Shown: piece after piece, positions 525 through 64,000 of the stretch | Numbering within the stretch: position 1 is the first letter of the stretch | Layout: each line of letters opens with the position of its first letter | NCBI GenBank assembly: GCA_913055685.1 | Contig: CAJXKC010000001.1 | Coordinates: forward strand, 1,395,734-1,459,733 | Length of the DNA stretch: 64,000 nucleotides | Reading direction: 5' to 3' | Source of the DNA: an uncultured Flavobacteriales bacterium | GTDB taxonomy: Bacteria; Bacteroidota; Bacteroidia; Flavobacteriales; Schleiferiaceae | Notes under the pieces: generated by a model | Told to the model about the DNA's origin: nothing | Databases searched by the model: none | Seen by the model: only the letters and a program-made list of their open reading frames with translations | Program-made: the position numbers and the translations under genes

Positions 525-830
525 ATGAGTCAGAAAATTCGCATTAAATTAAAGTCATACGACCACAACTTAGTAGATAAGTCTGCTGAGAAGATCGTTA
601 AGACCGTAAAGAGCACTGGTGCAATCGTTAATGGTCCAATTCCATTGCCGACCAATAAGCGTATCTACACCGTATTGCGTTCTCCTCACGTAAACAAGAA
701 ATCACGTGAGCAGTTCCAATTATCTTCTTTCAAGCGCTTGTTAGATATCTACAGTTCATCATCTAAGACTATTGATGCCTTGATGAAGTTAGAGCTTCCA
801 AGTGGAGTTGAGGTTGAGATTAAAGTTTGA
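525..830 (+). CDS. rpsJ: 30S ribosomal protein S10
   Basis: [14 protein letters not shown]...GPIPLPT...[13 protein letters not shown]; first gene of the S10 cluster. Confidence 0.99.
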
Positions 831-862
831 TAGAATAGTATTAATTATAAATAGATTGTCAA

Positions 863-1489
863 ATGCCTGGAATGATCGGTAAAAAGATCGGGATGACAAG
901 CCTCTTTGACGAAAACGGTAAAAATTTACCGTGTACCGTCATCGAAGTAGAGCCCAATGTGGTAACCCAGATCAAGTCCGCTGAGACTGACGGTTACGAA
1001 GCCGTACAAATTGGTTTCGGTGAGAAAAAAGAGAAAGCTACTACAGCTGCCCTTGCCGGACACTTTAAGAAAGCAGGAGTTAGTCCTCGCACTAAATTAA
1101 AGGAGTTCGAATTAAATGGTTACGCTGTAGAATTGAAGGAAGGCGCTGAAATCAGCGTTGACCAATTCGTTGCTGAAGGAGAATTCGTTGATGTAAGCGG
1201 AACTTCTAAAGGTAAAGGATTTCAAGGGGTTGTTAAACGTCATGGCTTTGGTGGTGTAGGTCAAGCTACCCACGGTCAGCACAACCGCTTACGTGCACCT
1301 GGTTCTATTGGTGCAGGTTCAGATCCTTCTCGTGTATTTAAAGGAATGCGTATGGCCGGCCGTATGGGTGGCGCTACCACTGTAGTAGAAAACTTACGTG
1401 TTATTAAAGTAGATGCAGAGAAGAATCTATTAGTTGTTAAAGGGTCGGTTCCAGGTCCTAAGAACTCAATCGTAATAATCACCAAGTAA
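863..1489 (+). CDS. rplC: 50S ribosomal protein L3
   Basis: [29 protein letters not shown] motifs; operon order. Confidence 0.99.
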
Positions 1490-2118
1490 TGGAATTAGCA
1501 GTATTAGATAGTAAAGGTAAAGACACCGGACGCAAGGTGACTTTGGCTGATGATTTATTCGCGATTGAGCCTAATGAGCATGCTTTATATCTAGATGTTA
1601 AGCAATATTTGGCCAATCAGCGTCAAGGTACTCACAAAGCGAAAGAACGTGCAGAGGTATCTCGTACCACTAAAAAGTTCTTCCGTCAGAAAGGAACTGG
1701 TAACGCACGTGTTGGTTCTTTGAAGAGTCCAGTACAACGTGGTGGTGGTACCGTATTTGGTCCACGTCCTCGTAACTACGGATTCAAATTGAACAAAAAG
1801 TTAAAAGCTTTAGCACGTCGTTCTGCTTTAAGTCAGAAAGCTGCTGATAGCAATATCGTAGTGTTGGAAAGCTTAAAAATGGACGCTCCAAGCACCAAAA
1901 ATTACTTGCAAATTCTAGCGGCGCTAGGGCTTCAAGACAAAAAATCTTTGGTAGTGCTTGGTGAGTCAAATAAAGCTGTATATTTGTCGTCCCGAAATTT
2001 TAAGGGTTCTAATGTTGTAACTGCTTCAGAAATAAACACTTACGCTGTTTTGAACGCTCAAACAGTAGTTTTAACTGAAGATTCATTAGAAAAGCTTGAA
2101 ACTGTTTTAAGAAAGTAG
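1489..2118 (+). CDS. rplD: 50S ribosomal protein L4
   Basis: [35 protein letters not shown]. Confidence 0.99.
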
Positions 2119-2121
2119 ACC

Positions 2122-2412
2122 ATGGGCATTTTGATTAAACCAATCATCACCGAAAAGGCGACCGCGGACAGCGAAGAGATGAATCGCTTTGCATTTGAAG
2201 TTGCGGTAGATGCCAATAAGGTTGAAATCCGCAAGGCGGTAGAAGAGCTTTACGGTGTAAACGTAGAAAGTGTTCGTACTATGGTAATGCCAGGTAAGCG
2301 TAAATTCCGCTACACCAAAACTGGTATTAGTCGTGGTAACACTGGTAAGTATAAGAAAGCCATTGTGGAAGTTCGCAGTGGTGAAACTATTGACCTTTAT
2401 AGCGAAATTTAA
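2122..2412 (+). CDS. rplW: 50S ribosomal protein L23
   Basis: [33 protein letters not shown]. Confidence 0.98.
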
Positions 2413-2414
2413 TT

Positions 2415-3239
2415 ATGGCTGTACGTAAGTTAAATCCGGTTACTCCCGGACAGCGTTTTAAAGTTGTAGGTCAGTTTGAAACTGTAACCGCCAGCAAGCC
2501 TGAGAAGTCTCTTGTAAAAGGGAAATCAAAGTCGGGCGGACGTAACAATACAGGTAAGATGACCATGCGCCAAATTGGTGGTGGTCACAAGAAGAAATAT
2601 CGTGTAATCGATTTCAAGCGTGATAAAGATGGTATACCAGCAACTGTAAAGTCCATCGAGTATGATCCTAACCGTTCTGCTCGCGTGGCTTTGTTGGTTT
2701 ATGCCGACGGTGAAAAGCGCTACATCATTGCTCCTAATGGCCTTCAAGTAGGTCAGAAGCTTATGAGCGGTAGCGAAGCGACTCCAGAGATCGGTAACAC
2801 CATGTTCTTAGCAGATATTCCATTAGGTACTGTTATTAGTGGTATCGAAATGCGTCCAGGTCAAGGGGCTATCATTGCTCGTTCGGCCGGTGCTTTCGCT
2901 CAGCTAGCAGCTCGTGATGGTAAGTACGCGATTATCAAGTTACCTAGTGGTGAGACTCGTATGATTCTTACTACTTGTAAAGCTACTATTGGTGCGATTG
3001 GAAATTCTGATCACCAATTAGAGCGCAGTGGTAAAGCCGGTCGTAGCCGTTGGTTAGGTCGTCGTCCACGCGTTCGTGGTGTAGCTATGAACCCAGTAGA
3101 TCACCCCATGGGTGGTGGTGAAGGTCGCGCGAGCGGTGGTCACCCACGTTCTCGTACTGGTGTTCCTGCAAAAGGTTACAAGACCCGTACTCCTAAGAAA
3201 GAGTCGAACAAGTATATCATTGAAAGACGTAAAAAGTAA
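2415..3239 (+). CDS. rplB: 50S ribosomal protein L2
   Basis: [38 protein letters not shown]. Confidence 0.99.
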
Positions 3240-3246
3240 TTAAGCT

Positions 3247-3528
3247 ATGGCGAGATCATTAAAGAAAGGTCCTTTTATTCACCATAAGCTGGAGAAGCGT
3301 GTATTGGCGAATGTGGAGAGCGGTAAGAAGTCAGTTATTAAAACTTACTCTCGTGCTTCCATGATTTTCCCTGAAGCGGTGGGTCAGACCATAGCAGTGC
3401 ACAACGGAAGAACTTTTGTTCCTGTATTTGTAACAGAGAACATGGTAGGACACAAATTCGGTGAATTTTCTCTTACCCGTACTTTCCGTGGACACGGTGG
3501 TAATAAAAAAGATAAAGGTAAGCGCTAA
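3247..3528 (+). CDS. rpsS: 30S ribosomal protein S19
   Basis: [30 protein letters not shown]. Confidence 0.99.
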
Positions 3529-3538
3529 GATTTAAGAT

Positions 3539-3970
3539 ATGGGATCTAGAAAAAGACTTAGAGCTGAAGCGAATAAAGTAGCCCGTGAAAACGTGGCGAG
3601 CGCTCAGTTGCGCAATTATCCAACCAGCCCTCGCAAGATGCGCTTGGTAGCGGATATGGTACGCGGAATGGACGTAGATAAGGCTTTGTTCTTATTAAAG
3701 AATAGTCCAAAGCATGCCAGCATTCCTATGGAGAAATTGATTCTTTCTGCAATCAATAACTGGGAGCAGAAGAATGAGGGAGCTCGTATCGAGGATGCAG
3801 CGCTTTACATTTCTGAAATTAAAGTTGATTCTGCGCGTATGTTGAAGCGTATCCAGCCCGCCCCACAGGGTCGTGCTCACCGCATTCGCAAGCGTAGCAA
3901 TCACGTGACTGTAGTAGTAGATGCACGCACTGAGGCAGCTACTGTTGAATCTAACGAAACAAACGAATAA
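3539..3970 (+). CDS. rplV: 50S ribosomal protein L22
   Basis: [35 protein letters not shown]. Confidence 0.99.
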
Positions 3971-3974
3971 CCGC

Positions 3975-4694
3975 ATGGGACAGAAGACTAATCCAATAGG
4001 AAATCGATTAGGATTTATCCGCGGCTGGGACAGCAACTGGTATGGTGGTCGTGATTATGGCGACAAGATTGCGGAAGATGCCAAAATCCGTAATTACTTG
4101 TACGCTCGTCTTGCCAAAGCCAGTGTAAGTCGAATCATTATCGAGCGCACTTTAAAACTTGTTACCGTAACAATTACTACCAGTCGTCCTGGTATTATTA
4201 TCGGTAAAGGTGGACAAGAGGTCGATAAGTTGAAAGAAGAGCTTAAAAAGCTCACTAACAAAGAAGTTCAGATTAACATCTTCGAGATCAAACGTCCTGA
4301 ATTAGATGCCAAATTGGTGGCCGATTCTATTGCCCGCCAGATTGAGGGACGTATCTCTTACCGTCGTGCTGTGAAAATGGCTATCGCCGCTTCGATGCGT
4401 ATGGGTGCTGAAGGAATCAAGATTATGGTTTCTGGACGTCTTAATGGTGCGGAAATGGCACGTTCTGAAATGTATAAAGATGGACGTACTCCGTTACACA
4501 CTTTCCGCGCCGACATTGATTATGCTTTATCTGAAGCACATACCACTTATGGTCGCTTAGGAATTAAAGTGTGGATCATGAAAGGCGAAGTATACGGTAA
4601 ACGCGATCTAAGCAATCCATTCGGAGCAGCCAAGAAATCGGGTGCTCAGGGCGGTAACGCTGGTGGCGGACGTAACAGAAGAAAGAGAAAATAA
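3975..4694 (+). CDS. rpsC: 30S ribosomal protein S3
   Basis: Start moved to the ATG at 3975 ([13 protein letters not shown]); [31 protein letters not shown]. Confidence 0.99.
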
Positions 4695-4720
4695 TAAGCG
4701 TAGGCTTAAATTATTGAAAG

Positions 4721-5143
4721 ATGTTACAACCTAAAAAGACAAAACATAGAAAGCAGTTTAAAGGCCGTATGAAGGGTAATGCCCAACGCGGTGCTGAAAT
4801 GGCTTTCGGTAGTTTCGGTTTAAAAGCTATGGATTCAGTGTTTATCACTTCACGTCAAATCGAGGCCGCTCGTATTGCAGCGACTCGTTACATGAAGCGT
4901 GAAGGACAGCTTTGGATTCGCATTTTTCCCGATAAACCTATTACCAAAAAGCCTGCGGAAGTACGTATGGGTAAAGGTAAAGGTGCTTTAGATCACTGGG
5001 TAGCAGTTGTTCGTCCCGGACGTATTTTGTTCGAATTGGACGGTGTTAACCAGGATATTGCAAAAGAAGCCTTGCGCTTAGCAGCACAAAAGCTTCCTGT
5101 TAAATGTAAGTTTATCACTCGCCGGGATTATACCGGTGTCTAA
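4721..5143 (+). CDS. rplP: 50S ribosomal protein L16
   Basis: [33 protein letters not shown]. Confidence 0.99.
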
Positions 5144-5156
5144 TTAGATTAGAAAG

Positions 5157-5342
5157 ATGAAGGCATCTGTTATCAAGGAAATGACTACGCAAGAAATTAG
5201 CGAGGCTATTTCAGAGGAAAAGATCAGCTACGACAAGTTACGTATGGCTCATCATATTTCCCCATTGGAAAATCCCATGGAGTTGAAATCAAAAAGAAAG
5301 GTGATCGCACGTTTAGAAACTGAGCTTCGCGCTCGTTCCTAA
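5157..5342 (+). CDS. rpmC: 50S ribosomal protein L29
   Basis: 61 aa, LENPMELKSKRKVIARLETEL; lies between rplP and rpsQ. Confidence 0.96.
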   Translation: MKASVIKEMTTQEISEAISEEKISYDKLRMAHHISPLENPMELKSKRKVIARLETELRARS

Positions 5343-5371
5343 GCCTAGATCTTTAATAAGATTTGTTTCAA

Positions 5372-5632
5372 ATGGAACACAAAAGAAACTTGCGTAAGGA
5401 ACGTGTCGGGATCGTAACCAGCAATAAGATGGATAAGTCTATCGTAGTTGCGGTTGAGAAAAAGCAAAAGCACCCGATGTATGGTAAGTTTATTAAGACT
5501 ACCAAAAAGTTTCATGCTCACGATGAGACGAATGACTGTAATATTGGCGACACTGTTCGCATTATGGAAACTCGTCCTTTGAGCAAGACCAAGAACTGGA
5601 GATTAGTAGAAATCATTGAAAGGGCTAAGTAA
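5372..5632 (+). CDS. rpsQ: 30S ribosomal protein S17
   Basis: ATG at 5372 preferred over TTG at 5363; [31 protein letters not shown]. Confidence 0.98.
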
Positions 5633-5635
5633 GCG

Positions 5636-6004
5636 ATGGTACAACAAGAATCACGACTAAAAGTAGCGGATAACACTGGAGCCAAGGAAGTTTTGGTGAT
5701 CCGCGTATTAGGAGGAACTGGTCGCCGTTACGCTTCGGTAGGCGATCGTATTGTAGTAACCATTAAGGAGTCTACACCTTCTGGTAACGCTAAGAAAGGA
5801 CAAGTGTCCAAGGCAGTAGTGGTACGTACCAAAAAAGAAGTGCGTCGCCCAGACGGGTCTTACATCCGTTTCGATGATAACGCTTGCGTATTGTTGAACG
5901 CTCAAAACGAAATGCGCGGTACTCGTGTATTCGGTCCAGTGGCTCGTGAATTACGCGACAAGCAGTACATGAAAATTGTATCACTAGCGCCAGAGGTGCT
6001 ATAA
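5636..6004 (+). CDS. rplN: 50S ribosomal protein L14
   Basis: [32 protein letters not shown]. Confidence 0.99.
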
Positions 6005-6014
6005 AGGATTAACA

Positions 6015-6335
6015 ATGGCAAAGTTTCATATTAAAAAAGGAGACAAGGTAATCGTACTTTCCGGCGAAGATAAAGGCAAGGAAGGTGTGGTTTTAGAAAT
6101 GCTTCCCAAGAAAGGTAAAGCTATTGTTGAAGGTATTAACGTAGTTAAGAAACATCAGAAGCCAAGCGCTACTAACCCACAGGGTGGTATCGAAGAAACT
6201 GAGGCTCCTATTTATGTTTCTAAACTAATGTTGGTAGATCCTAGCACTGGCAAACCCACTCGTGTAGGTCGTAAGGCAGACGAGAACGGGAACTTGGTTC
6301 GATACTCAAAGAAAACTCAAGAGATTATTAAGTAA
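6015..6335 (+). CDS. rplX: 50S ribosomal protein L24
   Basis: KOW motif [19 protein letters not shown]; [15 protein letters not shown]. Confidence 0.99.
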
Positions 6336-6883
6336 TGGACTTTTCTACCAAATTAAAGGACAAATACCAAGAGCAAATCATTGCGGCCTTAACTGAGGAA
6401 TTCGGTTATAAAAACCGCATGGAAGTTCCACGCTTGCAAAAGATCGTGTTATCTCAAGGTGTTGGCGATGCTACAGGTGATAAGAAACTTGTAGATCAAG
6501 CTGTAGAGCAAATGACTTCTATTGCTGGTCAGAAAGCAGTAGTTACTTATTCAAAAAAGGATATCTCTAACTTTAAACTTCGTAAGGGAATGCCAATTGG
6601 TGCAAAGGTTACTTTGCGTGGCAACCAGATGTTTGAATTTTTAGAGCGTTTACTTTGGTCTGCTTTACCTCGTATCCGTGATTTCAACGGAATCAAGAAT
6701 AATGGTTTTGATGGACGTGGTAACTATACTTTAGGTATCACCGAGCAGATCATTTTCCCAGAGATGAATATTGATCAAGTAAGTCGTATTACCGGTATGG
6801 ATATCACTTTTGTGACAACCGCAGATACCGATAAGGAGGCTTTCGCATTATTAAAACATTTAGGTTTACCCTTCAAAAAATAA
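6335..6883 (+). CDS. rplE: 50S ribosomal protein L5
   Basis: [41 protein letters not shown]. Confidence 0.99.
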
Positions 6884-47184: not shown

Positions 47185-48603
47185 ATGCCTGCCAAAGCCA
47201 AAGCGACTACCAAAGCAAAACCAGTAAAAAAAACTAGTTCAAAGTCTAGCACCAAGCGCACTGCAAAATCGGTATCCAAAGTATTTGTGCTCGATACTTC
47301 GGTGATTTTATACGATCATAACTCCATCATGAACTTTGATGAGCATGATGTGGCTATTCCCATTACCGTTTTGGAAGAATTGGATGAGTTTAAGAAAGGT
47401 AGCGATACCAAAAATTACGAGGCAAGGCAGTTTATTAGGCTTATTGACCGAAAGGCAGGTGAAAGCAATATAAATGACTGGATATCCTTAAACGGTGGAA
47501 CCAAAGGTCGTTTTAAGGTGATTATGGATACCCGCGGAGTGGGAGAGGATGCGCAGCGTATTTTCGGTGCCGGGAAGAATGATCATAAGATTTTAAATGC
47601 CGCCTTAAATCTAACCGAAGAAGAAAAGGACCGCAAAGTAATTCTGGTAACCAAGGATATTAACCTTCGTTTAAAGGCCAAGGCTTTAAATCTTACTGCC
47701 GAGGATTATGAAACGGGAAAGATTAAGGATGTCGACAGTCTCTATACCGGGAAGACGAATTTGGATGATTTCGATCAAGATTTGATTGATACATTGTACA
47801 AGAAGAAAACCCTACCGCTGGATAAAGTAGAAAAGGTCTACCCCAGTTTTTCTAAACTTAACAATCACTTTTACATCTTAAAGGCAAGCAAGAGCAGTAC
47901 CCTTTCATTTTACAATGCCTTCAGCGAAAGCTTGGACCAAATTGAAAAGAAAAGCTATTACGGTATTAAACCTCGCAATGCTGAGCAAGCTTTTGCCTTG
48001 CATGCGATTGCTAATCCCGATGTAAAGCTTGTAACCCTTAGCGGAGTAGCAGGTACGGGAAAAACCTTATTGGCCTTAGCGGGCGCCTTAGAGCAAAGAC
48101 GTGACTTTAAGCAAATTTACTTGGCGCGACCAATCGTTCCGCTTAGTAATAAAGATATCGGTTATTTACCGGGTGACATGAAGGCTAAGATTAATCCTTA
48201 TATGCAACCCTTATGGGATAACCTTAAGTTTATCAAGAACCAGTTTAATGAGCAGGATAAAGAATACCGTCAGATTGATGAGATGGTTACTTCCGAGAAA
48301 TTACTGGTTACACCCTTGGCTTACATTAGAGGTCGTAGTTTATCTAATGTGATTTTCATTGTGGATGAGGCCCAAAACTTAACTCCCCATGAGGTTAAAA
48401 CCATTATCACGCGTGCGGGAGAAAACGCCAAGTTTGTATTCACCGGTGATGTAAACCAGATTGATACGCCTTATTTGGATGAGCAGTCAAATGGCCTGAG
48501 CTACCTTATTGATAAGATTAAGGGTAATAAGTTATTTGCCCACGTATTATTGGAAAAAGGCGAACGCTCCGAATTAGCCAATCTCGCTAATGAGTTGCTT
48601 TAA
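47185..48603 (+). CDS. PhoH family protein (PIN domain plus PhoH ATPase)
   Basis: FVLDTSVILYD, NDHKIL, VTKDINLR; GVAGTGKT Walker A, YIRGRS, IVDEAQN, GDVNQID. Confidence 0.94.
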   Translation: MPAKAKATTKAKPVKKTSSKSSTKRTAKSVSKVFVLDTSVILYDHNSIMNFDEHDVAIPITVLEELDEFKKGSDTKNYEARQFIRLIDRKAGESNINDWISLNGGTKGRFKVIMDTRGVGEDAQRIFGAGKNDHKILNAALNLTEEEKDRKVILVTKDINLRLKAKALNLTAEDYETGKIKDVDSLYTGKTNLDDFDQDLIDTLYKKKTLPLDKVEKVYPSFSKLNNHFYILKASKSSTLSFYNAFSESLDQIEKKSYYGIKPRNAEQAFALHAIANPDVKLVTLSGVAGTGKTLLALAGALEQRRDFKQIYLARPIVPLSNKDIGYLPGDMKAKINPYMQPLWDNLKFIKNQFNEQDKEYRQIDEMVTSEKLLVTPLAYIRGRSLSNVIFIVDEAQNLTPHEVKTIITRAGENAKFVFTGDVNQIDTPYLDEQSNGLSYLIDKIKGNKLFAHVLLEKGERSELANLANELL

Positions 48604-48959
48604 TAGTTTTCCTGCTTAAAAGCCAAAAAGGAATAAACTCCAAGTATTAGCTCAATGGTAGAGTAGAGCATGAGTCCGGGGTTGGCGAAGTCGATAATGA
48701 GAATGGTGATAAAGAAAGCCGGTTGCAAAAGGCGGTAGTTTATAATCCAACGGTAAAGGCCGTCGATATCGTAAAAACTGCTTTTATAGCTGATGATTCC
48801 TTCAATGAACATGAAATATCCGAGGGTGCGCAGCCAATAGCGCGCCACGATATCCTTCCAGAAAAATAACATTACCTGATCGGGAATTGCCACCAAGATA
48901 AGGCCAGCGAAAATTAATATCCAGCCCGAATGTTTTATGGTTTTTGCCGTACGCGTCAT
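48600..48959 (-). CDS. Hypothetical membrane protein (about 4 TM)
   Basis: Hydrophobic 119-aa ORF filling the gap between PhoH and the pckA terminator. Confidence 0.6.
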   Translation of the reverse strand: MTRTAKTIKHSGWILIFAGLILVAIPDQVMLFFWKDIVARYWLRTLGYFMFIEGIISYKSSFYDIDGLYRWIINYRLLQPAFFITILIIDFANPGLMLYSTIELILGVYSFLAFKQENY

Positions 48960-49044: not shown

Positions 49045-50661
49045 TTAATTAACATCCGCTGATACTTTAGGTGCACCAGCCATTATTTCATCGCTCGCAT
49101 AGTCAGAGAATTTCTCGAAGTTTTTCAAGAATTTCTTAGCTAAGTTATTTGCGGTCTGATCGTATGCATCTTTATCTGCCCAGGTATTACGTGGGAATAA
49201 GATATCAGATGGAACATTAGGGCATTCGGTAGGCATGGCCAAACCAAATACTTCGTGGGTTTGGAAATCTACTGAATCTAATTCGCCGTTCATGGCGGCA
49301 GTGATCATGGCACGCGTGTATTTTAGGCTCATACGCTTACCCACACCGTAAGATCCGCCAGACCAGCCCGTGTTAACCAACCAAACATTTACGTTTGATT
49401 TTTGCATCTTCTCGCTTAGCATGTCGGCATACTTAGTAGGATGCAAGGGCATAAATGGTGCACCAAAACAAGCAGAGAATGCCACTTGAGGTTCGGTGAT
49501 GCCTTCTTCAGTTCCTGCTACTTTAGCGGTATAGCCGCTGATAAAGTGGAAAGCAGCCTGGCCCGGAGTCAGTTTCGAGATGGGAGGTAAAACCCCATAG
49601 GCATCACAGGTAAGGAAGAATACATTTCTTGGGTTTTCACCACGTGAAGGCTCCTGAATATTATCGATGTGATAAATAGGATAGCTCACCCGAGTATTCT
49701 CAGTTTTGCTGCTGTCGGTGTAATCCACTTCATTTCCGTCGCCTTTAAAGACGATGTTCTCCAAAAGAGCACCGGGTTTGATGGCGCGGAAAATATCGGG
49801 TTCTTTTTCTTCGCTAAGGTCAATAACCTTGGCATAGCATCCCCCTTCGAAATTGAAGATTACATCGTCTTCTGTCCAACCATGCTCATCGTCACCAATA
49901 AGCTTACGATTAGGGTCAGCACTAAGGGTAGTTTTGCCAGTACCGGATAAACCAAAGAAGAGTGCGGTATCACCTTCGGCACCAACATTGGCCGAACAGT
50001 GCATACTAAGCACATTTTTTTGATGAGGTAAAATAAAGTTGAGGGCCGAGAAAATTCCTTTCTTGATCTCTCCGGTATAACCTGTGCCTCCAACTACCGC
50101 CATTTGGTCGCTGAAGTTAAGGATGGCAAAATTAGATTGACGGGTATGGTCTACTTCAGGCTCCGCCATAAAGCCAGGAGCGTTAAATACCACCCAGTCC
50201 GGTTCAAAGTCTTTAAGTTCTTCTTCACTAGGGCGAAGGAACATATTGTGGGCAAAAATATTTGACCATGGTAATTCGGTAATTACCCGAATTTTTAAAC
50301 GGTAACGATCGTCGGCACATGCATATACATCACGTACGTAAATTTCCTTACCACCTAAGTAATCGGCTACTTTGGATTTGAGATTACCATAATGCTCAGG
50401 CTCGAATGGAATATTAATATCACCCCACCAAACTGAATCTTTGGTAAGCTCATCTTTTACAATAAAACGATCTTTAGGTGAACGCCCTTTGAAAGCTCCG
50501 GTGTCGATAGATAATGCTCCAGAATCGGCGATTTCGCCCATTCCTTTTTTTACCGCAATTTTTTCCAGATCTGAAGGGGAAAGGTTCCATTTGGCATCGG
50601 CATTTTTAATGCCGTATTGCTCGAGTGAAGCTTGAGTTGGTCTCACTTCTTTAAAACTCAT
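49045..50661 (-). CDS. pckA: Phosphoenolpyruvate carboxykinase (ATP)
   Basis: GRSPKDRF, GYTGEIKK, MHCSAN, GLSGTGKTTLS, IGDDEHGW, NFEGGCYAK, WLVNTGW. Confidence 0.99.
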   Translation of the reverse strand: MSFKEVRPTQASLEQYGIKNADAKWNLSPSDLEKIAVKKGMGEIADSGALSIDTGAFKGRSPKDRFIVKDELTKDSVWWGDINIPFEPEHYGNLKSKVADYLGGKEIYVRDVYACADDRYRLKIRVITELPWSNIFAHNMFLRPSEEELKDFEPDWVVFNAPGFMAEPEVDHTRQSNFAILNFSDQMAVVGGTGYTGEIKKGIFSALNFILPHQKNVLSMHCSANVGAEGDTALFFGLSGTGKTTLSADPNRKLIGDDEHGWTEDDVIFNFEGGCYAKVIDLSEEKEPDIFRAIKPGALLENIVFKGDGNEVDYTDSSKTENTRVSYPIYHIDNIQEPSRGENPRNVFFLTCDAYGVLPPISKLTPGQAAFHFISGYTAKVAGTEEGITEPQVAFSACFGAPFMPLHPTKYADMLSEKMQKSNVNVWLVNTGWSGGSYGVGKRMSLKYTRAMITAAMNGELDSVDFQTHEVFGLAMPTECPNVPSDILFPRNTWADKDAYDQTANNLAKKFLKNFEKFSDYASDEIMAGAPKVSADVN

Positions 50662-50695
50662 AATGCTAGGTTTTGATCAGCAATAATTTGTGGGA

Positions 50696-50703
50696 CAAAA
50701 TTA
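50696..50703 (-). promoter_or_regulatory. -7 promoter element for pckA
   Basis: Minus strand TAATTTTG. Confidence 0.7.
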
Positions 50704-50724: not shown

Positions 50725-50740
50725 TGTGATTTATATCAGA
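50725..50740. promoter_or_regulatory. CRP/FNR-family-like box upstream of pckA
   Basis: TGTGA-TTTATA-TCAGA (9 of 10 CRP half-site positions; TGAT-N4-ATCA core). Confidence 0.5.
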
Positions 50741-50758
50741 AATAAAATCACTTTTAGT

Positions 50759-50778
50759 TAGCGTAAAAAGTACACTAA
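50759..50778. promoter_or_regulatory. Palindromic operator candidate, copy 1 (pckA upstream)
   Basis: TAGCGTA-AAAAG-TACACTA; 16/18 identical to the copy at 62403-62420. Confidence 0.55.
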
Positions 50779-59968: not shown

Positions 59969-62356
59969 TTAAACCCAGCGCAGGGTTATTTGGTTAAAGT
60001 TCTCAGGTACTTCAAATTCGTAAGAAGAACCAGAGGTTTTGATATTAGGCTTAAAGCTTTCGGAATTTACTTCCACCGACTTAGGCGCCTGCTCAAAGCC
60101 GTGAAAGATCATTTTATAGTTCTGATATTCGGCCGGCATCCGACCTTCTTTAAATTGAGTAATGCGGTATTTATCTTTAGAAGGAATAACCGTAAAACTC
60201 TTTATCGCATGCATGCCTTGTTTGTGGGCATAGCCATCGTCTTGGTCTTCGTAGAGTTTGCTAATTACCGTTTCTTCACCACGGTAAACATGTAACTCAA
60301 TTGCTTCGCCCTTTTGGGCGGCAGTGTATTGTTTAACCTCGGCGCGCGGAATTATCGCTCCTGCTTTTATGAAAGTCGGTATTTCATTTAGAGGAGTCTG
60401 AATTAGATGTTCTTTTCCGCCGATAAAGATTTCGTTGGAGTAGAGATGGTACCATTTTCCTCTAGGGATATACATGCGTCTGCTTTGGCGATTCGGCTCA
60501 ATAACCGGGCATACCAAGATGTGATCTCCAAATAAAAACTCGTCTTGTCGATACCAGGTTTGTGGATCTTCATGATCAAAGAAGACCAAAGGCCTCAACA
60601 TCGGCTTACCTTCACTACTATATTGGAAGAAGGTCGTGTAGTGATAAGGCAATAATGCGTAGCGCAGTTCAATGGCTTCGCGCACCAAATCGGTTCCTTC
60701 TTCGCCGAAGCTCCAAGGCTCTTGTTCGCCATGGTCTCCAGAAGAGTGGGTGCGCATTAAGGGGTGGAAAACCGCTAATTGCATCCAGCGTACAAAAAGT
60801 TCCATGCTGGGATGCTCAGTAAAGCCACCGATATCGGATCCTACAAAGGAAAAGCCACTTATCGCTAAACGCTGGGCTTGTACATTGGCCACCCAAAGGT
60901 GCTCCCAAGTAGCAATATTATCACCGGTCCATACCGATGAATAACGCTGACCACCAGCATAGGTACTGCGAGTGATAAGGAAAGGACGATTAGGGTAGGC
61001 CGATTTCTTAACGCCGTGGTAAGAAGCGCGACTCATCTGCATGCCATAAACATTATGAGCTTTGCGATGGCTACAAGGATGCCCGTCATAATTATGACGT
61101 ATATCTAAGGGGAAGGTTTTGGTAGGTACATCCATAATGGCCGGCTCATTCATGTCGTTCCAGATGCCAGCTAAGCCCACTTCTTCAATCAGTCCTTTAA
61201 AGAGGCCCGACCACCACTCGCGTACTTCAGGGTTGGTGAAGTCGGGAAAGTAACACTCTCCCGGCCACACTTTGCCCTTATATAATGGACCATCGGCATG
61301 TTTACAGAAATAGCCCCTCTCAAAGCCCTCTTTACATACCTCATAGTCCATATCGACTTTAATTCCCGGGTCAATTATGGCCACGGTTTTAAAGCCCATT
61401 TCTTTAAGTCGGTCTACCATGCCCTTGGGGTCCGGGAAATTCTCCTGGTTCCAAGTAAAGCAGCGGAAGCCGTCCATATAATCAATGTCTAAATAGATTG
61501 CATCGGCAGGAATTTCTAGCTCTCGAAGCTTAGTGGCAATGGCCATCACTTCTTCTTCGCTAGAATAACTCCATTTACATTGATGGTAGCCTAAGGTCCA
61601 TTTTGCCGGCAATTCAGGTTTTCCGGTTAAACGAGAATAACGCTGGGCGATATTCATCAGGCTTGAGCCGGCAATGAAATAATAATTGATTTCTCCTCCT
61701 TCGGCCCAGAAGCTGGTTACATTATTGCGTTCCGAGGCAAAATCGAAAAAGGTGCGAAATGAATTATCGAAAAAGATGCCGTAACAGCCGTCCTTATGAA
61801 GACCATAATAAAAAGGAATGTTCCGGTAAAGTGGATCCGCATCCTTGGCAAAGCCGTATTCATCGGTTCCCCAGTTCTGAAAACGGCGATCACGTAAATT
61901 GAGATTAGTAGGTTTATCTCCTAATCCATAGTAATGCTCGCCCATTAGAGAGCGCTTACTCATTTTTACGATGTTGTCGCCCCTCTGACTATCTTCTTGC
62001 CAGTGAAAACCTTTCTCATCTTCATTGAGCAGTTTACCATGCTCATCATAGATGGAGGTTTTTAAGTCGTGGCGGTTAATATGCGCTTTAATTTTTGGCG
62101 TTGCGAAGATGTAATAATCGCCTTCCTCGCTAATGCTGAACTTACTAAAACCCGAGCGATGGTCTTTATCCATCGCATAGGAGAAGTCATCCGAGAAATA
62201 ACCCTTCGCCGAAAAGCGAAAACGCATAACATGATCGGTAATTACTTCAATTTTTAGCATTACCCCATTATGGCTATGAAGGATAGCGTGAGAGCCATTT
62301 TTTTCAAGCTCTACTACATGGTTGGGAAAATGCTCATTAGGAAGCGAGTGTATCAC
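59969..62356 (-). CDS. Glycoside hydrolase family 31 (alpha-glucosidase)
   Basis: GTG start; LGYHQCKWSY, YLDIDYMD, nucleophile WNDMNEP, acid/base WTGDN, GSDIGGF. Confidence 0.95.
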   Translation of the reverse strand: MIHSLPNEHFPNHVVELEKNGSHAILHSHNGVMLKIEVITDHVMRFRFSAKGYFSDDFSYAMDKDHRSGFSKFSISEEGDYYIFATPKIKAHINRHDLKTSIYDEHGKLLNEDEKGFHWQEDSQRGDNIVKMSKRSLMGEHYYGLGDKPTNLNLRDRRFQNWGTDEYGFAKDADPLYRNIPFYYGLHKDGCYGIFFDNSFRTFFDFASERNNVTSFWAEGGEINYYFIAGSSLMNIAQRYSRLTGKPELPAKWTLGYHQCKWSYSSEEEVMAIATKLRELEIPADAIYLDIDYMDGFRCFTWNQENFPDPKGMVDRLKEMGFKTVAIIDPGIKVDMDYEVCKEGFERGYFCKHADGPLYKGKVWPGECYFPDFTNPEVREWWSGLFKGLIEEVGLAGIWNDMNEPAIMDVPTKTFPLDIRHNYDGHPCSHRKAHNVYGMQMSRASYHGVKKSAYPNRPFLITRSTYAGGQRYSSVWTGDNIATWEHLWVANVQAQRLAISGFSFVGSDIGGFTEHPSMELFVRWMQLAVFHPLMRTHSSGDHGEQEPWSFGEEGTDLVREAIELRYALLPYHYTTFFQYSSEGKPMLRPLVFFDHEDPQTWYRQDEFLFGDHILVCPVIEPNRQSRRMYIPRGKWYHLYSNEIFIGGKEHLIQTPLNEIPTFIKAGAIIPRAEVKQYTAAQKGEAIELHVYRGEETVISKLYEDQDDGYAHKQGMHAIKSFTVIPSKDKYRITQFKEGRMPAEYQNYKMIFHGFEQAPKSVEVNSESFKPNIKTSGSSYEFEVPENFNQITLRWV

Positions 62357-62384: not shown

Positions 62385-62402
62385 GATAAAACTTGGGACT
62401 TC

Positions 62403-62420
62403 GTGTAAAAAATACACTAA
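62403..62420. promoter_or_regulatory. Palindromic operator candidate, copy 2 (GH31 promoter)
   Basis: GTGTA-AAAAA-TACAC-TAA. Confidence 0.6.
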
Positions 62421-62476
62421 ATATTTTTTAGAAAAGATTAAGTTATTGGTTCCCAGTCCACAATGGCTGATTTAGC

Positions 62477-63316
62477 TTAATCTTTTCTTTTTCCTAAGGT
62501 TTTGATATCGCGGAAATAGAAATTGTTTTTGGGGTCTAAGGTGAAAACCGGGATGCGGTACTGATTTAAAAGTACCGTCTGAGCAAAATCTTTTCCAAAC
62601 ATCCTCTTTAAGGCACTGTCGCCATGGTGCGGAATCGCAATTAAATCGGATTGCATTTCTTGGGCGTAGTGAATGAGGTAGTCATCAAAGTTTTTGGTTT
62701 CGGGGGCATATTTTACCGTGGCCTCTACACCAAGTTCTTTGAAATATTCGACCGAAACCTCCGCGATTTCTCGGCCTAAGTTCTGCTTGCTTTTATCGCT
62801 ATTCCAGGAAGCGAGGATGTGTACTTGGCTACCCTGGGGCATGGCTAGAGCGGCAGCGGCCTCTAAAATTCGCATATCGTCACTATGCAAGTCAATGGGA
62901 ATGGTAATGTGCTCCATTCTGCTTTTAATGCGATGATCTTCCTGCACAATCATAAAAGGGGTTTCGGCACTAGTGATCAGTCGCAGCGCGCTACTGCTAA
63001 ACTTGCGAACACCATTTTCTACCGGCGGACTACCTAATACTGTGCACACCACCCTTTCGCGCTGGATAAGATCATTTATGATATCCAATATGTCCCCACT
63101 CTCCATTACGATTTCCCAAGGGGCATCATCCAGGATGTACTGTTCACCAATACGCACTAATTTCCTGTAACGTTCCTGTTTATCTGAATCTTTAATGCGT
63201 TTCGGTAAAGCATGTGCCAAAACAATCTCAATATTGAGATTATCGGTAAACTCATCGGTGTACCGGAGAGCATGTTCGGCCGCAGGACTAAAATCTATGG
63301 GGACTACTATTTTCAT
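62477..63316 (-). CDS. Universal stress protein (tandem UspA domains)
   Basis: KIVVPIDFSPAAEHAL, HITIPIDL, DLIAIPHHG, IPVFTL. Confidence 0.85.
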   Translation of the reverse strand: MKIVVPIDFSPAAEHALRYTDEFTDNLNIEIVLAHALPKRIKDSDKQERYRKLVRIGEQYILDDAPWEIVMESGDILDIINDLIQRERVVCTVLGSPPVENGVRKFSSSALRLITSAETPFMIVQEDHRIKSRMEHITIPIDLHSDDMRILEAAAALAMPQGSQVHILASWNSDKSKQNLGREIAEVSVEYFKELGVEATVKYAPETKNFDDYLIHYAQEMQSDLIAIPHHGDSALKRMFGKDFAQTVLLNQYRIPVFTLDPKNNFYFRDIKTLGKRKD

Positions 63317-63460
63317 AAATCAAAAAACCTGGCGATGCAGGAAATGTTTGGGTACTATTTAAAAGCAAAGTGCTTAAGGCTTACAAGATAATCACTGAAG
63401 CCCATTCTTTAAAACTCCAAAAGTGGAGCGGTTAATTTAATTTAACTTCTACTTTACACT

Positions 63461-63480
63461 TAGTGTGAAAAATACACTAA
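63461..63480. promoter_or_regulatory. Palindromic operator candidate, copy 3 (CBM48/USP divergent region)
   Basis: TAGTGTG-AAAAA-TACACTA; 17/18 identical to copy 2; overlaps the TAAGTTTG promoter element. Confidence 0.6.
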
Positions 63481-63485
63481 GTTTG
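63478..63485 (+). promoter_or_regulatory. -7 promoter element for the CBM48 gene
   Basis: TAAGTTTG. Confidence 0.65.
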
Positions 63486-63511: not shown

Positions 63512-63811
63512 ATGGCCTTACGTAAAAAGTATTTGAAGTCGAAGCCGGTTTGCAAGGTGAGCTTCGATTTTCCCAGTGATCGTCTTGCAGAGGAAGTGAA
63601 AGAAGTAGAATTAGTAGCCTCTTTCAACAATTGGGAACCCATTAGCTTGCGAAAAGCGAAGGGTACCTTTACGCGTACAATCGATTTAGAAGCGGGTTCC
63701 AATTACGAATTCCGCTACCGAGTGAACGGTGAAATTTGGGAGAATGATGAAGCGGCAGACGCCTATCAGCCCAATGGTATTGACGGAGATAACTCGGTGC
63801 TAGTCCTTTAA
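63512..63811 (+). CDS. Isoamylase early-set / CBM48 glycogen-binding domain protein
   Basis: KPVCKVSF, VELVASFNNW, YEFRYRVNGEIWEND, NSVLVL. Confidence 0.88.
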   Translation: MALRKKYLKSKPVCKVSFDFPSDRLAEEVKEVELVASFNNWEPISLRKAKGTFTRTIDLEAGSNYEFRYRVNGEIWENDEAADAYQPNGIDGDNSVLVL

Positions 63812-64000
63812 GATTTTTTCTTGTAGACCAGTGCGGCTAGGGGAGCAAGGTTTAATTTTAAGCCTTGCTTCCGGCCGTGACTCGCTTTTTTCTCGCTTTC
63901 CAAACGACTCTTCACCTTATAATTACTGCCCCAGTAATTAGAGGCATCGCCATTAAAGACTAGTTCGTATTTACCCGGATTATTAATTCCGATGCGGTAA
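63808..64000 (-). CDS. glgB: 1,4-alpha-glucan branching enzyme, C-terminal fragment (gene continues beyond the window); absent from the ORF track
   Basis: Hand translation YRIGINNPGKYELVFNGDASNYWGSN...HGRKQGLKLNLAPLAALVYKKKS* resembles the GlgB C-terminal beta-domain. Confidence 0.8.
   Translation of the reverse strand, partial: YRIGINNPGKYELVFNGDASNYWGSNYKVKSRLESEKKASHGRKQGLKLNLAPLAALVYKKKS

Follow-up and report, generated by a model that had tools for sequence, protein, structure and literature searches.

The stretch of DNA analyzed here, hereafter the window, comprises 64,000 nucleotides (C1:1395734-1459733) of contig CAJXKC010000001.1 (C1) of an uncultured Flavobacteriales bacterium of the Schleiferiaceae, a Croceimicrobium whose genome has 2.96 Mb and 43.7% G+C. 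It contains three copies of a palindromic sequence, which are the subject of this work, together with the regulator that would bind them. One copy lies upstream of pckA, which encodes an ATP-dependent phosphoenolpyruvate carboxykinase. The other two lie on either side of a tandem-USP gene, between a GH31 alpha-glucosidase-type gene and the gene of a small glycogen-binding module of the CBM48/AMPK type (table 1). Pfam searches upheld the gene calls of a preliminary description made from the letters of the window, namely PEPCK_ATP, GH31, Usp, AMPK1_CBM/CBM48-like and a LytTR response regulator. The palindromes were also found where that description had placed them, and it was right in seeing no other copy: exactly three matches with up to three mismatches occur in the window, compared with 0.12 expected, and none of 100 shuffles had three.

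The preliminary description gave the palindrome as TAGTGTA-N5-TACACTA. The dyad is real, but longer than that. The full operator is a 21-bp palindrome, TTAGTGTA-N5-TACACTAA, and weaker AC/GT flanks stretch the dyad to 25 bp. Similarly, the common orientation and the A-rich spacer attributed to the palindromes are true of the three window sites, but not of the other sites in the genome and in orthologous promoters, where the spacers are variable and only AT-rich.

Table 1. Operators, genes and promoter elements discussed in the text. Positions are those of the window unless preceded by C1 (contig).
Feature	Position	Strand	Remarks
Operator 3	50758-50778		TTAGCGTAAAAAGTACACTAA = TTAGCGTA-AAAAG-TACACTAA; 24 bits; 97 bp upstream of pckA start
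Operator 1	62400-62420		TTCGTGTAAAAAATACACTAA = TTCGTGTA-AAAAA-TACACTAA; 28.3 bits; 44 bp upstream of GH31 start
Operator 2	63460-63480		TTAGTGTGAAAAATACACTAA = TTAGTGTG-AAAAA-TACACTAA; 29.4 bits; 32 bp upstream of CBM48 gene, 144 bp from USP start
pckA	49045..50661	-	Pfam PEPCK_ATP, E = 1.8e-221; predicted target of operator 3
pckA 5' leader	50662-50695		contains block AATTATTGCTGATCAAAA
pckA -7 box	50696..50703	-	TAATTTTG; invariant block GTxTTAATTTTG in 13 genomes
Crp/Fnr-type site	50727..50738		TGATTTATATCA (TGAT-N4-ATCA); centered at about -41, between operator 3 and pckA -7 box
GH31 alpha-glucosidase-type gene	59969..62356	-	Pfam GH31 domains; predicted target of operator 1
Tandem-USP gene	62477..63316	-	Pfam Usp; between operators 1 and 2
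CBM48 -7 box	63478-63485		TAAGTTTG
Small CBM48/AMPK-type gene, 99 aa	63512..63811	+	Pfam AMPK1_CBM; predicted target of operator 2
glgB (branching enzyme), 3' end	63808..64000	-	own operator at C1:1461486, just past the window end
Fluoride riboswitch match	48722-48809	+	sub-threshold; within and antisense to a 119-aa open reading frame at 48600-48959
Paralog A	C1:514801-515502		in operon with thiolase and thioesterase genes (C1:513525-515954)
Paralog B, 258 aa	C1:718581-719357		heads cluster of SSF and MFS sugar transporters, GH16 and GH30 (to C1:725255)
Paralog C	C1:817982-818683		about 577 kb upstream of the window, between pfkA and susC, one operator on each side

Allowing up to two mismatches, TTAGTGTA-N5-TACACTAA occurs 10 times in the whole genome, nine of them in intergenic DNA. 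The reversed, non-complemented consensus gave a single match and 100 palindromes with shuffled half-sites gave 1.9 +/- 1.9 matches, with a maximum of eight. Outside the window, six of the seven matches are intergenic compared with 6.4% expected (P = 4.5e-7). A palindromic position weight matrix (PWM) retrieved 15 sites of at least 20 bits, with a clear score gap below them; 14 are intergenic and the remaining one lies at the edge of a crudely called open reading frame (ORF). Gene coordinates beyond the window were obtained with a crude longest-ORF caller, and start codons such as that of pfkA may be off by some codons.

According to domain searches, strong sites precede pfkA, with gapA and the genes of a BadF-type sugar kinase and a GH65 maltose phosphorylase after it. 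Others were found upstream of susC-susD, of a GH13/GH13/MFS operon and of a GH13 secreted by the type IX secretion system (T9SS), and at a divergent pair made up of a secreted CBM20/CBM48 protein and a GH13 cyclomaltodextrinase-like enzyme. The remaining ones lie upstream of glgB, GH31, the small CBM48 gene, pckA and an aldehyde dehydrogenase gene. Both pfkA and pckA are present as single copies in the genome (pckA by tblastn). The expectation of the preliminary description that sites would precede genes of glycolysis, gluconeogenesis, glycogen and starch use was borne out, supporting a coherent carbon regulon that comprises alpha-glucan use, glycolysis, pckA and glgB.

The same description could name no operator that the palindrome matches, and on this point it was not upheld. 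Operators of the NrtR family are 21-bp palindromes with a conserved GT-N7-AC core (PMC2330246), and the window motif has this structure, GTA-N5-TAC being a form of GT-N7-AC. It is also nearly the same as AAAGTGTAAAAAAGACACTTAT and AAAGTGTTACTTTTACACCC, the validated operators of BtAraR (BT0354) of Bacteroides thetaiotaomicron (PMC4666351). We found three NrtR-family genes in the genome, here called paralogs A, B and C, all with NrtR_WHD (77-84 bits) and AraR_C domains; Pfam detects NUDIX in B and C, not in A. Two of the genes encode 233 amino acids and have a site immediately upstream, and the third encodes 258. The LytTR regulator encoded near the palindromes, already judged an unlikely binder, was rejected because nothing connects it with the motif in the rest of the genome.

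Paralog C sits within the alpha-glucan locus itself, in the order GH65 maltose phosphorylase-BadF-type kinase-gapA-pfkA <site> regulator <site> susC-susD. Among 40 relatives searched, 28 further genomes have orthologs of this gene, with 51-92% identity, and in 25 of the 28 a strong site is found 60-90 bp upstream. Such co-localization of operators and regulator gene, seen here also in the pfkA/gapA divergon, is one of the marks by which NrtR regulators are recognized. The nearest named relatives are Croceimicrobium and other Flavobacteriales of the Schleiferiaceae/Cryomorphaceae type, and named bins of Croceimicrobium, Schleiferiaceae, Cryomorphaceae and other Flavobacteriales retain the arrangement pfkA/gapA <site> regulator. 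The longer order GH65-kinase-gapA-pfkA <site> regulator <site> susC or GH13 was traced in 12-kb loci of public genomes and holds as far as about 50% identity. One relative, G019, has only paralog C, and every site with at most one mismatch is on the contig that holds the regulator and its locus. The persistence of the locus and the sites of G019 indicate that the core regulon is the alpha-glucan/glycolysis locus itself. Across 43 unique sites linked to paralog C, the operator letters G, T, G and T are 97-100% conserved.

The protein itself also belongs to this family. Paralog C matches NrtR_WHD with 83.6 bits (cut-off 27), AraR_C with 40 bits and NUDIX with 22.6 bits, and its closest solved protein is BtAraR (5BS6; phmmer E = 8.6e-34, full length, 34% identity). 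An AlphaFold2 model of an ortholog with 92% identity (predicted local distance difference test, pLDDT, 86.8) was ranked by Foldseek closest to BtAraR (TM 0.76-0.79), then to Shewanella NrtR (TM 0.64-0.72), then to NadQ. The residues K179, R180, N181 and K184, by which BtAraR contacts bases, correspond to K195, R196, N197 and K200 of paralog C, each identical in 28 or 29 of 29 orthologs. In the Nudix segment, PGDLILDDEGLDGAASRVLKDLTGL, RVLKDL replaces REUXEE and the catalytic glutamates are missing, an impairment of the signature GX5EX7REUXEEXGU that is likewise typical of NrtR regulators. Because of this degenerate box, we take the domain to be a sensor and not an enzyme.

The ligand pocket of paralog C is partly that of BtAraR. 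Of the arabinose contacts, it retains Arg86, His131, Phe129 and Val92, and has Gln for Arg34 (as in 22 of 29 orthologs), Met for Phe36, Asp for Gly48 and Leu for Phe49. In addition, a 15-residue insertion after Arg86 (RVxDxKDxxWLxxxR), modeled as a short helix at 90-97, is conserved in the 29 orthologs. The protein scores 120.3 bits with the NCBIfam equivalog model of NrtR, NF050029, for which the cut-off is 400, and no NAD genes were found beside the strong PWM sites. The changed pocket and the low equivalog score suggest that the ligand is probably neither arabinose nor ADP-ribose.

On these grounds we propose, with a probability of roughly 0.7, that the three palindromes are NrtR-family operators to which paralog C binds, that is, part of a new regulon under a regulator of a known family. 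The earlier suggestion of functional operators for a dimeric helix-turn-helix (HTH) regulator, here one with a winged HTH, is supported by our data. Each subunit of the dimer would consist of a Nudix-like ligand domain without catalytic activity at the N terminus and the winged HTH at the C terminus. If it behaves like BtAraR, the dimer would, as long as it has no ligand, occupy GTGTA-N5-TACAC sites overlapping the -33/-7 regions and block transcription of GH31, CBM48, pfkA, susC and the GH13 amylase genes, as well as that of glgB in this clade. Its release would follow the binding of a glucan-derived sugar or sugar phosphate in the Nudix-like pocket. At pckA, where the operator lies at about -77 beside a Crp/Fnr-like site at about -41, the dimer would modulate an activator-dependent promoter and not occlude RNA polymerase. 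Overall, gluconeogenesis would thereby be coupled to glycolysis and the use of alpha-glucans. Our data show the motif, with its enrichment, conservation and link to the regulator gene, and the family and fold of the regulator. The choice among the paralogs, the effector and the direction of regulation at the individual targets are inferred.

The position of the operators relative to the promoters is consistent with such a mechanism. Promoters of Bacteroidota have a -7 box, TAnnTTTG, and a -33 element. Operator 1 covers the -33/spacer region of the GH31 promoter, whose conserved -7 box, TACTTTCG, begins 14-16 nt downstream of the operator end. The -7 box of the CBM48 gene overlaps the right arm of operator 2, and at both CBM48 and pfkA the box TAAGTTTG is formed in part from an operator arm. 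In glgB, susC and the GH13 operon, a TAnnTTTG box is found 5-15 nt downstream of the operator end. As most operators overlap the -33/-7 region, steric repression is implied, as shown for BtAraR, and from this placement we infer that GH31 and CBM48 are repressed by the operator-bound regulator. At pckA, the operator center is 65 nt upstream of the -7 box TAATTTTG, or about -77 from the inferred transcription start. The promoter placements of the preliminary description, with operator 1 over the -33 region of GH31, operator 2 on the -7 element of CBM48 and the pckA operator at about -77, were accurate.

The pckA promoter has a different architecture. The preliminary description had noted a CRP-like site there, and this site, TGAT-N4-ATCA, is indeed kept in 10 of 13 aligned promoters of the genus. 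No -33 TTTG element was evident. The arrangement resembles a class II promoter with an activator of the Crp/Fnr type, and the operator at about -77 together with the activator site at about -41 suggests that the promoter on which the NrtR-type protein acts here depends on an activator. The pckA operator is located at about -105 from the ATG in 16/16 genomes of the genus, forming an island of identity amid a variable intergenic spacer, and its asymmetric TACGCT arm is inherited across the genus. Also in the 5' leader of pckA, the block AATTATTGCTGATCAAAA is nearly invariant across the genus.

The region between GH31 and the CBM48 gene is equally well kept at the genus level, the CBM48 gene being the divergent partner of GH31 in all loci. 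Of the 15 genus genomes with GH31, 14 have the adjacent operator at -54 to -66; the 15th locus is truncated by the contig end and its offsets are shifted. The second operator, further upstream, occurs in 15/15. Footprinting therefore gave the outcome favorable to the preliminary description both at pckA and at this pair of sites. In other members of the genus the two operators are 95-222 bp apart with no intervening USP, which was found between them only in this genome and its two closest relatives (G000, G004, G009). Such a distribution makes the USP gene look like an insertion and not an old target. It is probably a recent, lineage-specific insertion between two older operators, and it is doubtful that it belongs to the regulon. 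In G004 the tblastn match to USP is in two overlapping pieces, and this copy may be frameshifted. Some relatives from the genus (L072-L077) have a third, weaker site, ATTAATTGTAAGCATGACACTTAAT, at about -106 from the GH31 start, between the GH31 and CBM48 operators; it resembles the variant site of paralog B described below.

Which of the paralogs binds the window operators is the most delicate part of our interpretation. Orthologs of paralog A have an operator of their own upstream, CTTAGTGT-N7-ACACTAAG, in 12 of 15 genus loci, and a similar site was found at C1:500123, between FabH-like and fasciclin genes. The sites of paralog A may represent a lipid or acetyl-CoA regulon of a Nudix-like regulator. 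As the operator of A is near-identical to that of C, the motif alone cannot decide between them. It is conceivable, then, that A binds the window operators instead of, or alongside, C, in which case pckA, and perhaps the GH31/CBM48 pair, would be tied to lipid or acetyl-CoA metabolism. The recognition helices are almost equal (DKRNFRR in A and DKRNFRK in C), and one inner position of operator 2 is imperfect (GTGTG), a trait of A-type sites. Cells need pckA to grow on fatty acids or acetate, and G019, with paralog C only, has no pckA site; both facts count in favor of A. The inner positions of the operators, however, tell the two apart. Of the 43 sites linked to paralog C, in which position -3 is A in 90% of half-sites, 34 carry GTGTA...TACAC on both halves, compared with none of the eight unique autoregulatory sites of paralog A, whose outer CTT arms are nearly invariant. 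The pckA sites (12/12) and the GH31/CBM48 sites (17/23) follow the pattern of C. This pattern and the alpha-glucan function of GH31, CBM48 and glgB favor paralog C, which is in our view probably the binder of the window operators, while binding by A in its place or at its side is unlikely. Cross-binding by A and C is possible, with pckA in particular answering to A.

Several observations weigh against the interpretation that we prefer. The near-identity of the A motif limits the certainty with which paralog C can be named, and the discriminating signature comes from eight related A-type sites in a single genus. Moreover, the outer CTT/AAG arms are well conserved in the window sites, as they are in A-type sites, so that A could bind some or all of them. 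Beyond the genus, the pckA site was found in just 2 of 14 loci and GH31 homologues have no site near the gene start, and the operator of glgB (30.4 bits) is kept only in the three closest genomes. The window targets have thus joined recently, at the level of the genus or later, a core regulon that is local to the alpha-glucan locus. Finally, a glucan-derived sugar or sugar phosphate as effector is a guess, and so is the sign of regulation at pckA.

Two other explanations depart from the NrtR family altogether. A protein of the Crp/Fnr, GntR or LacI family, for example, could bind the palindrome, whose likeness to NrtR operators and adjacency to the NrtR genes would then be coincidental. A Crp/Fnr-like site is present at pckA, and GT...AC cores are found in GntR-family operators too, which can be counted in favor of such a binder. 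The geometry of the palindrome is nevertheless GTG-N9-CAC within an odd, 21-bp dyad. Crp recognizes TGTGA-N6-TCACA, that is, GTG-N8-CAC, and LacI sites are even and CG-centered. This spacing excludes binding of the Crp/Fnr type, whether to TGTGA-N6-TCACA or to TTGAT-N4-ATCAA. Considering also that the motif accompanies the NrtR gene from family to family, as far as about 50% identity, that validated BtAraR operators are nearly identical and that the contact residues are conserved, we regard another family of binder as very improbable. Even harder to sustain is the idea that the dyads are RNA hairpins, either terminators of DUF423 and USP or leader structures. Operators 3 and 1 do lie just downstream of the DUF423 and USP stop codons on the minus strand, and an 8-bp stem with a 5-nt loop could form. 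The stem, though, is AT-rich with no U-tract after it, and deviations in one arm are inherited without compensation in the other, as in TTAGCGTA/TACACTAA at pckA in 16 genomes and in TACACGAAG at GH31. Sites also occur in divergent promoters in which no transcripts end (pfkA<>regulator, GH31<>CBM48), and Rfam has no family match at the operator sites. The uncompensated arms, the divergent promoters and the result with Rfam lead us to reject hairpins or terminators.

Paralog B seems to stand apart from this regulon. Its DNA-intercalating Arg is replaced by Ala (DKANFRK), and a variant site, AATTGTAAAGAATACACTT, is found 33 bp upstream. The gene cluster that it heads looks like one for the use of laminarin or another beta-glucan. 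Paralog B was rejected as a XylR-like binder, given the lost Arg and a search with the half-site AATTGTA that gave no separate regulon. More distant homologues from Flavobacteriaceae, with about 40% identity (L120-L150; e.g., L145, Polaribacter sp. Hel1_85 583-6717), lie beside genes for mannitol dehydrogenase, PfkB fructokinase and a HAD hydrolase, which suggests a further sugar-specific branch of the family. They were rejected as members of the same group, having no motif nearby. Elsewhere in the window, the fluoride riboswitch match listed in table 1 (25.3 bits compared with a gathering score of 34, E = 0.0021) is probably spurious.

A wider interpretation may be advanced tentatively, although we find it rather doubtful. 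Proteins like paralog C, with the 15-residue insertion by the ligand pocket and the change of Arg34 to Gln, might form a distinct NrtR subfamily acting as master switch between glycolysis and gluconeogenesis in marine Flavobacteriales of the Schleiferiaceae/Cryomorphaceae type, by sensing a glucan-derived sugar or a central sugar phosphate. Such a switch would repress the alpha-glucan polysaccharide utilization locus (PUL), the sole pfkA, gapA and GH31 and, from about -77, help or hinder a Crp/Fnr-type activator at pckA. The NrtR family would then have radiated in Flavobacteriia into the main cytoplasmic sugar sensors, candidates for which are linked here to alpha-glucan, GH16/GH30 beta-glucan, mannitol and thiolase loci.

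Independently of this wider view, our analysis predicts a concrete and testable pair of regulator and operator for the alpha-glucan locus in marine Flavobacteriales of an abundant group. As the regulon reaches the single pfkA and the single pckA, one Nudix-like sensor may set both the use of polysaccharides and the direction of carbon flux. The range of the NrtR family would be extended from NAD metabolism, arabinose and xylose to glucans, and the PWM offers a means of annotating regulons in metagenome-assembled genomes of the clade. The regulation of PULs in marine Bacteroidetes was described as largely unknown in a 2020 paper (PMC7641319).

Among characterized systems, the nearest is BtAraR (PDB 5BS6, 5DD4, 5DDG, 5DEQ; PMC4666351). 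The two proteins have in common the domain plan, the fold and the degenerate Nudix box. The BtAraR operator, AAGTGTA-N5-(T/G)ACACTT, has the same GTGT-N7-ACAC geometry with about 25 bp covered, and its operators also overlap promoters of sugar-catabolic genes and SusC/D loci. However, BtAraR responds to L-arabinose, whereas paralog C, from a lineage of Schleiferiaceae/Cryomorphaceae-type Flavobacteriales, shares only 34% identity with it, has lost Arg34 of the triad Arg34/Arg86/His131 and has an insertion at the pocket. Its predicted regulon, made up of alpha-glucan genes plus pfkA, gapA, pckA and glgB, has no linkage to ara genes, and arabinose cannot be assumed to be the effector. Classical NrtR regulators, such as those of Shewanella oneidensis (3GZ5/3GZ6) and Synechocystis, respond to ADP-ribose and control NAD metabolism (PMC2330246). 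Paralog C resembles them in the 21-bp GT-N7-AC operator, in autoregulation and in having sites co-localized with the regulator gene, but differs from them in scoring below the equivalog cut-off, in a regulon without NAD genes and in the lower structural similarity (TM 0.64-0.72).

Comparison with other regulators of carbon metabolism is a matter of function. The preliminary description spoke of a Cra/HexR-like switch, and as an analogy this still stands, with sites at the sole pfkA, a committed glycolytic gene, at the sole gluconeogenic pckA and at sugar-catabolic genes. The likeness does not extend to the protein family, as the candidate is a Nudix-like NrtR/AraR protein encoded outside the window. 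Cra (FruR, LacI family) and HexR (RpiR family) differ from it in family, operators and effectors, and no homology is implied. Only an NrtR-family regulator gene accompanies the motif, no search having been made for Cra or HexR homologues elsewhere in the genome. SusR and LacI-type PUL regulators control alpha-glucan systems with SusC/SusD, GH13, GH65 and GH31, as predicted here, and it is usually these regulators that are linked to starch or alpha-glucan PULs in Bacteroides and Flavobacteriaceae. They belong to other families, and SusR is a membrane-spanning activator, unlike the predicted cytoplasmic, Nudix-like repressor. In the searchable literature, regulon databases such as RegPrecise aside, arabinose and xylose are the only sugars for which NrtR-family regulators of Bacteroidetes are described (PMC2330246, PMC3878776, PMC4666351), and we found no link of NrtR or Nudix regulators to starch, alpha-glucans or PULs, pfkA or pckA. 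The class of operator and the family of the regulator are known; what appears to be new is the regulon, the variant of the ligand pocket and the extension to central carbon metabolism.

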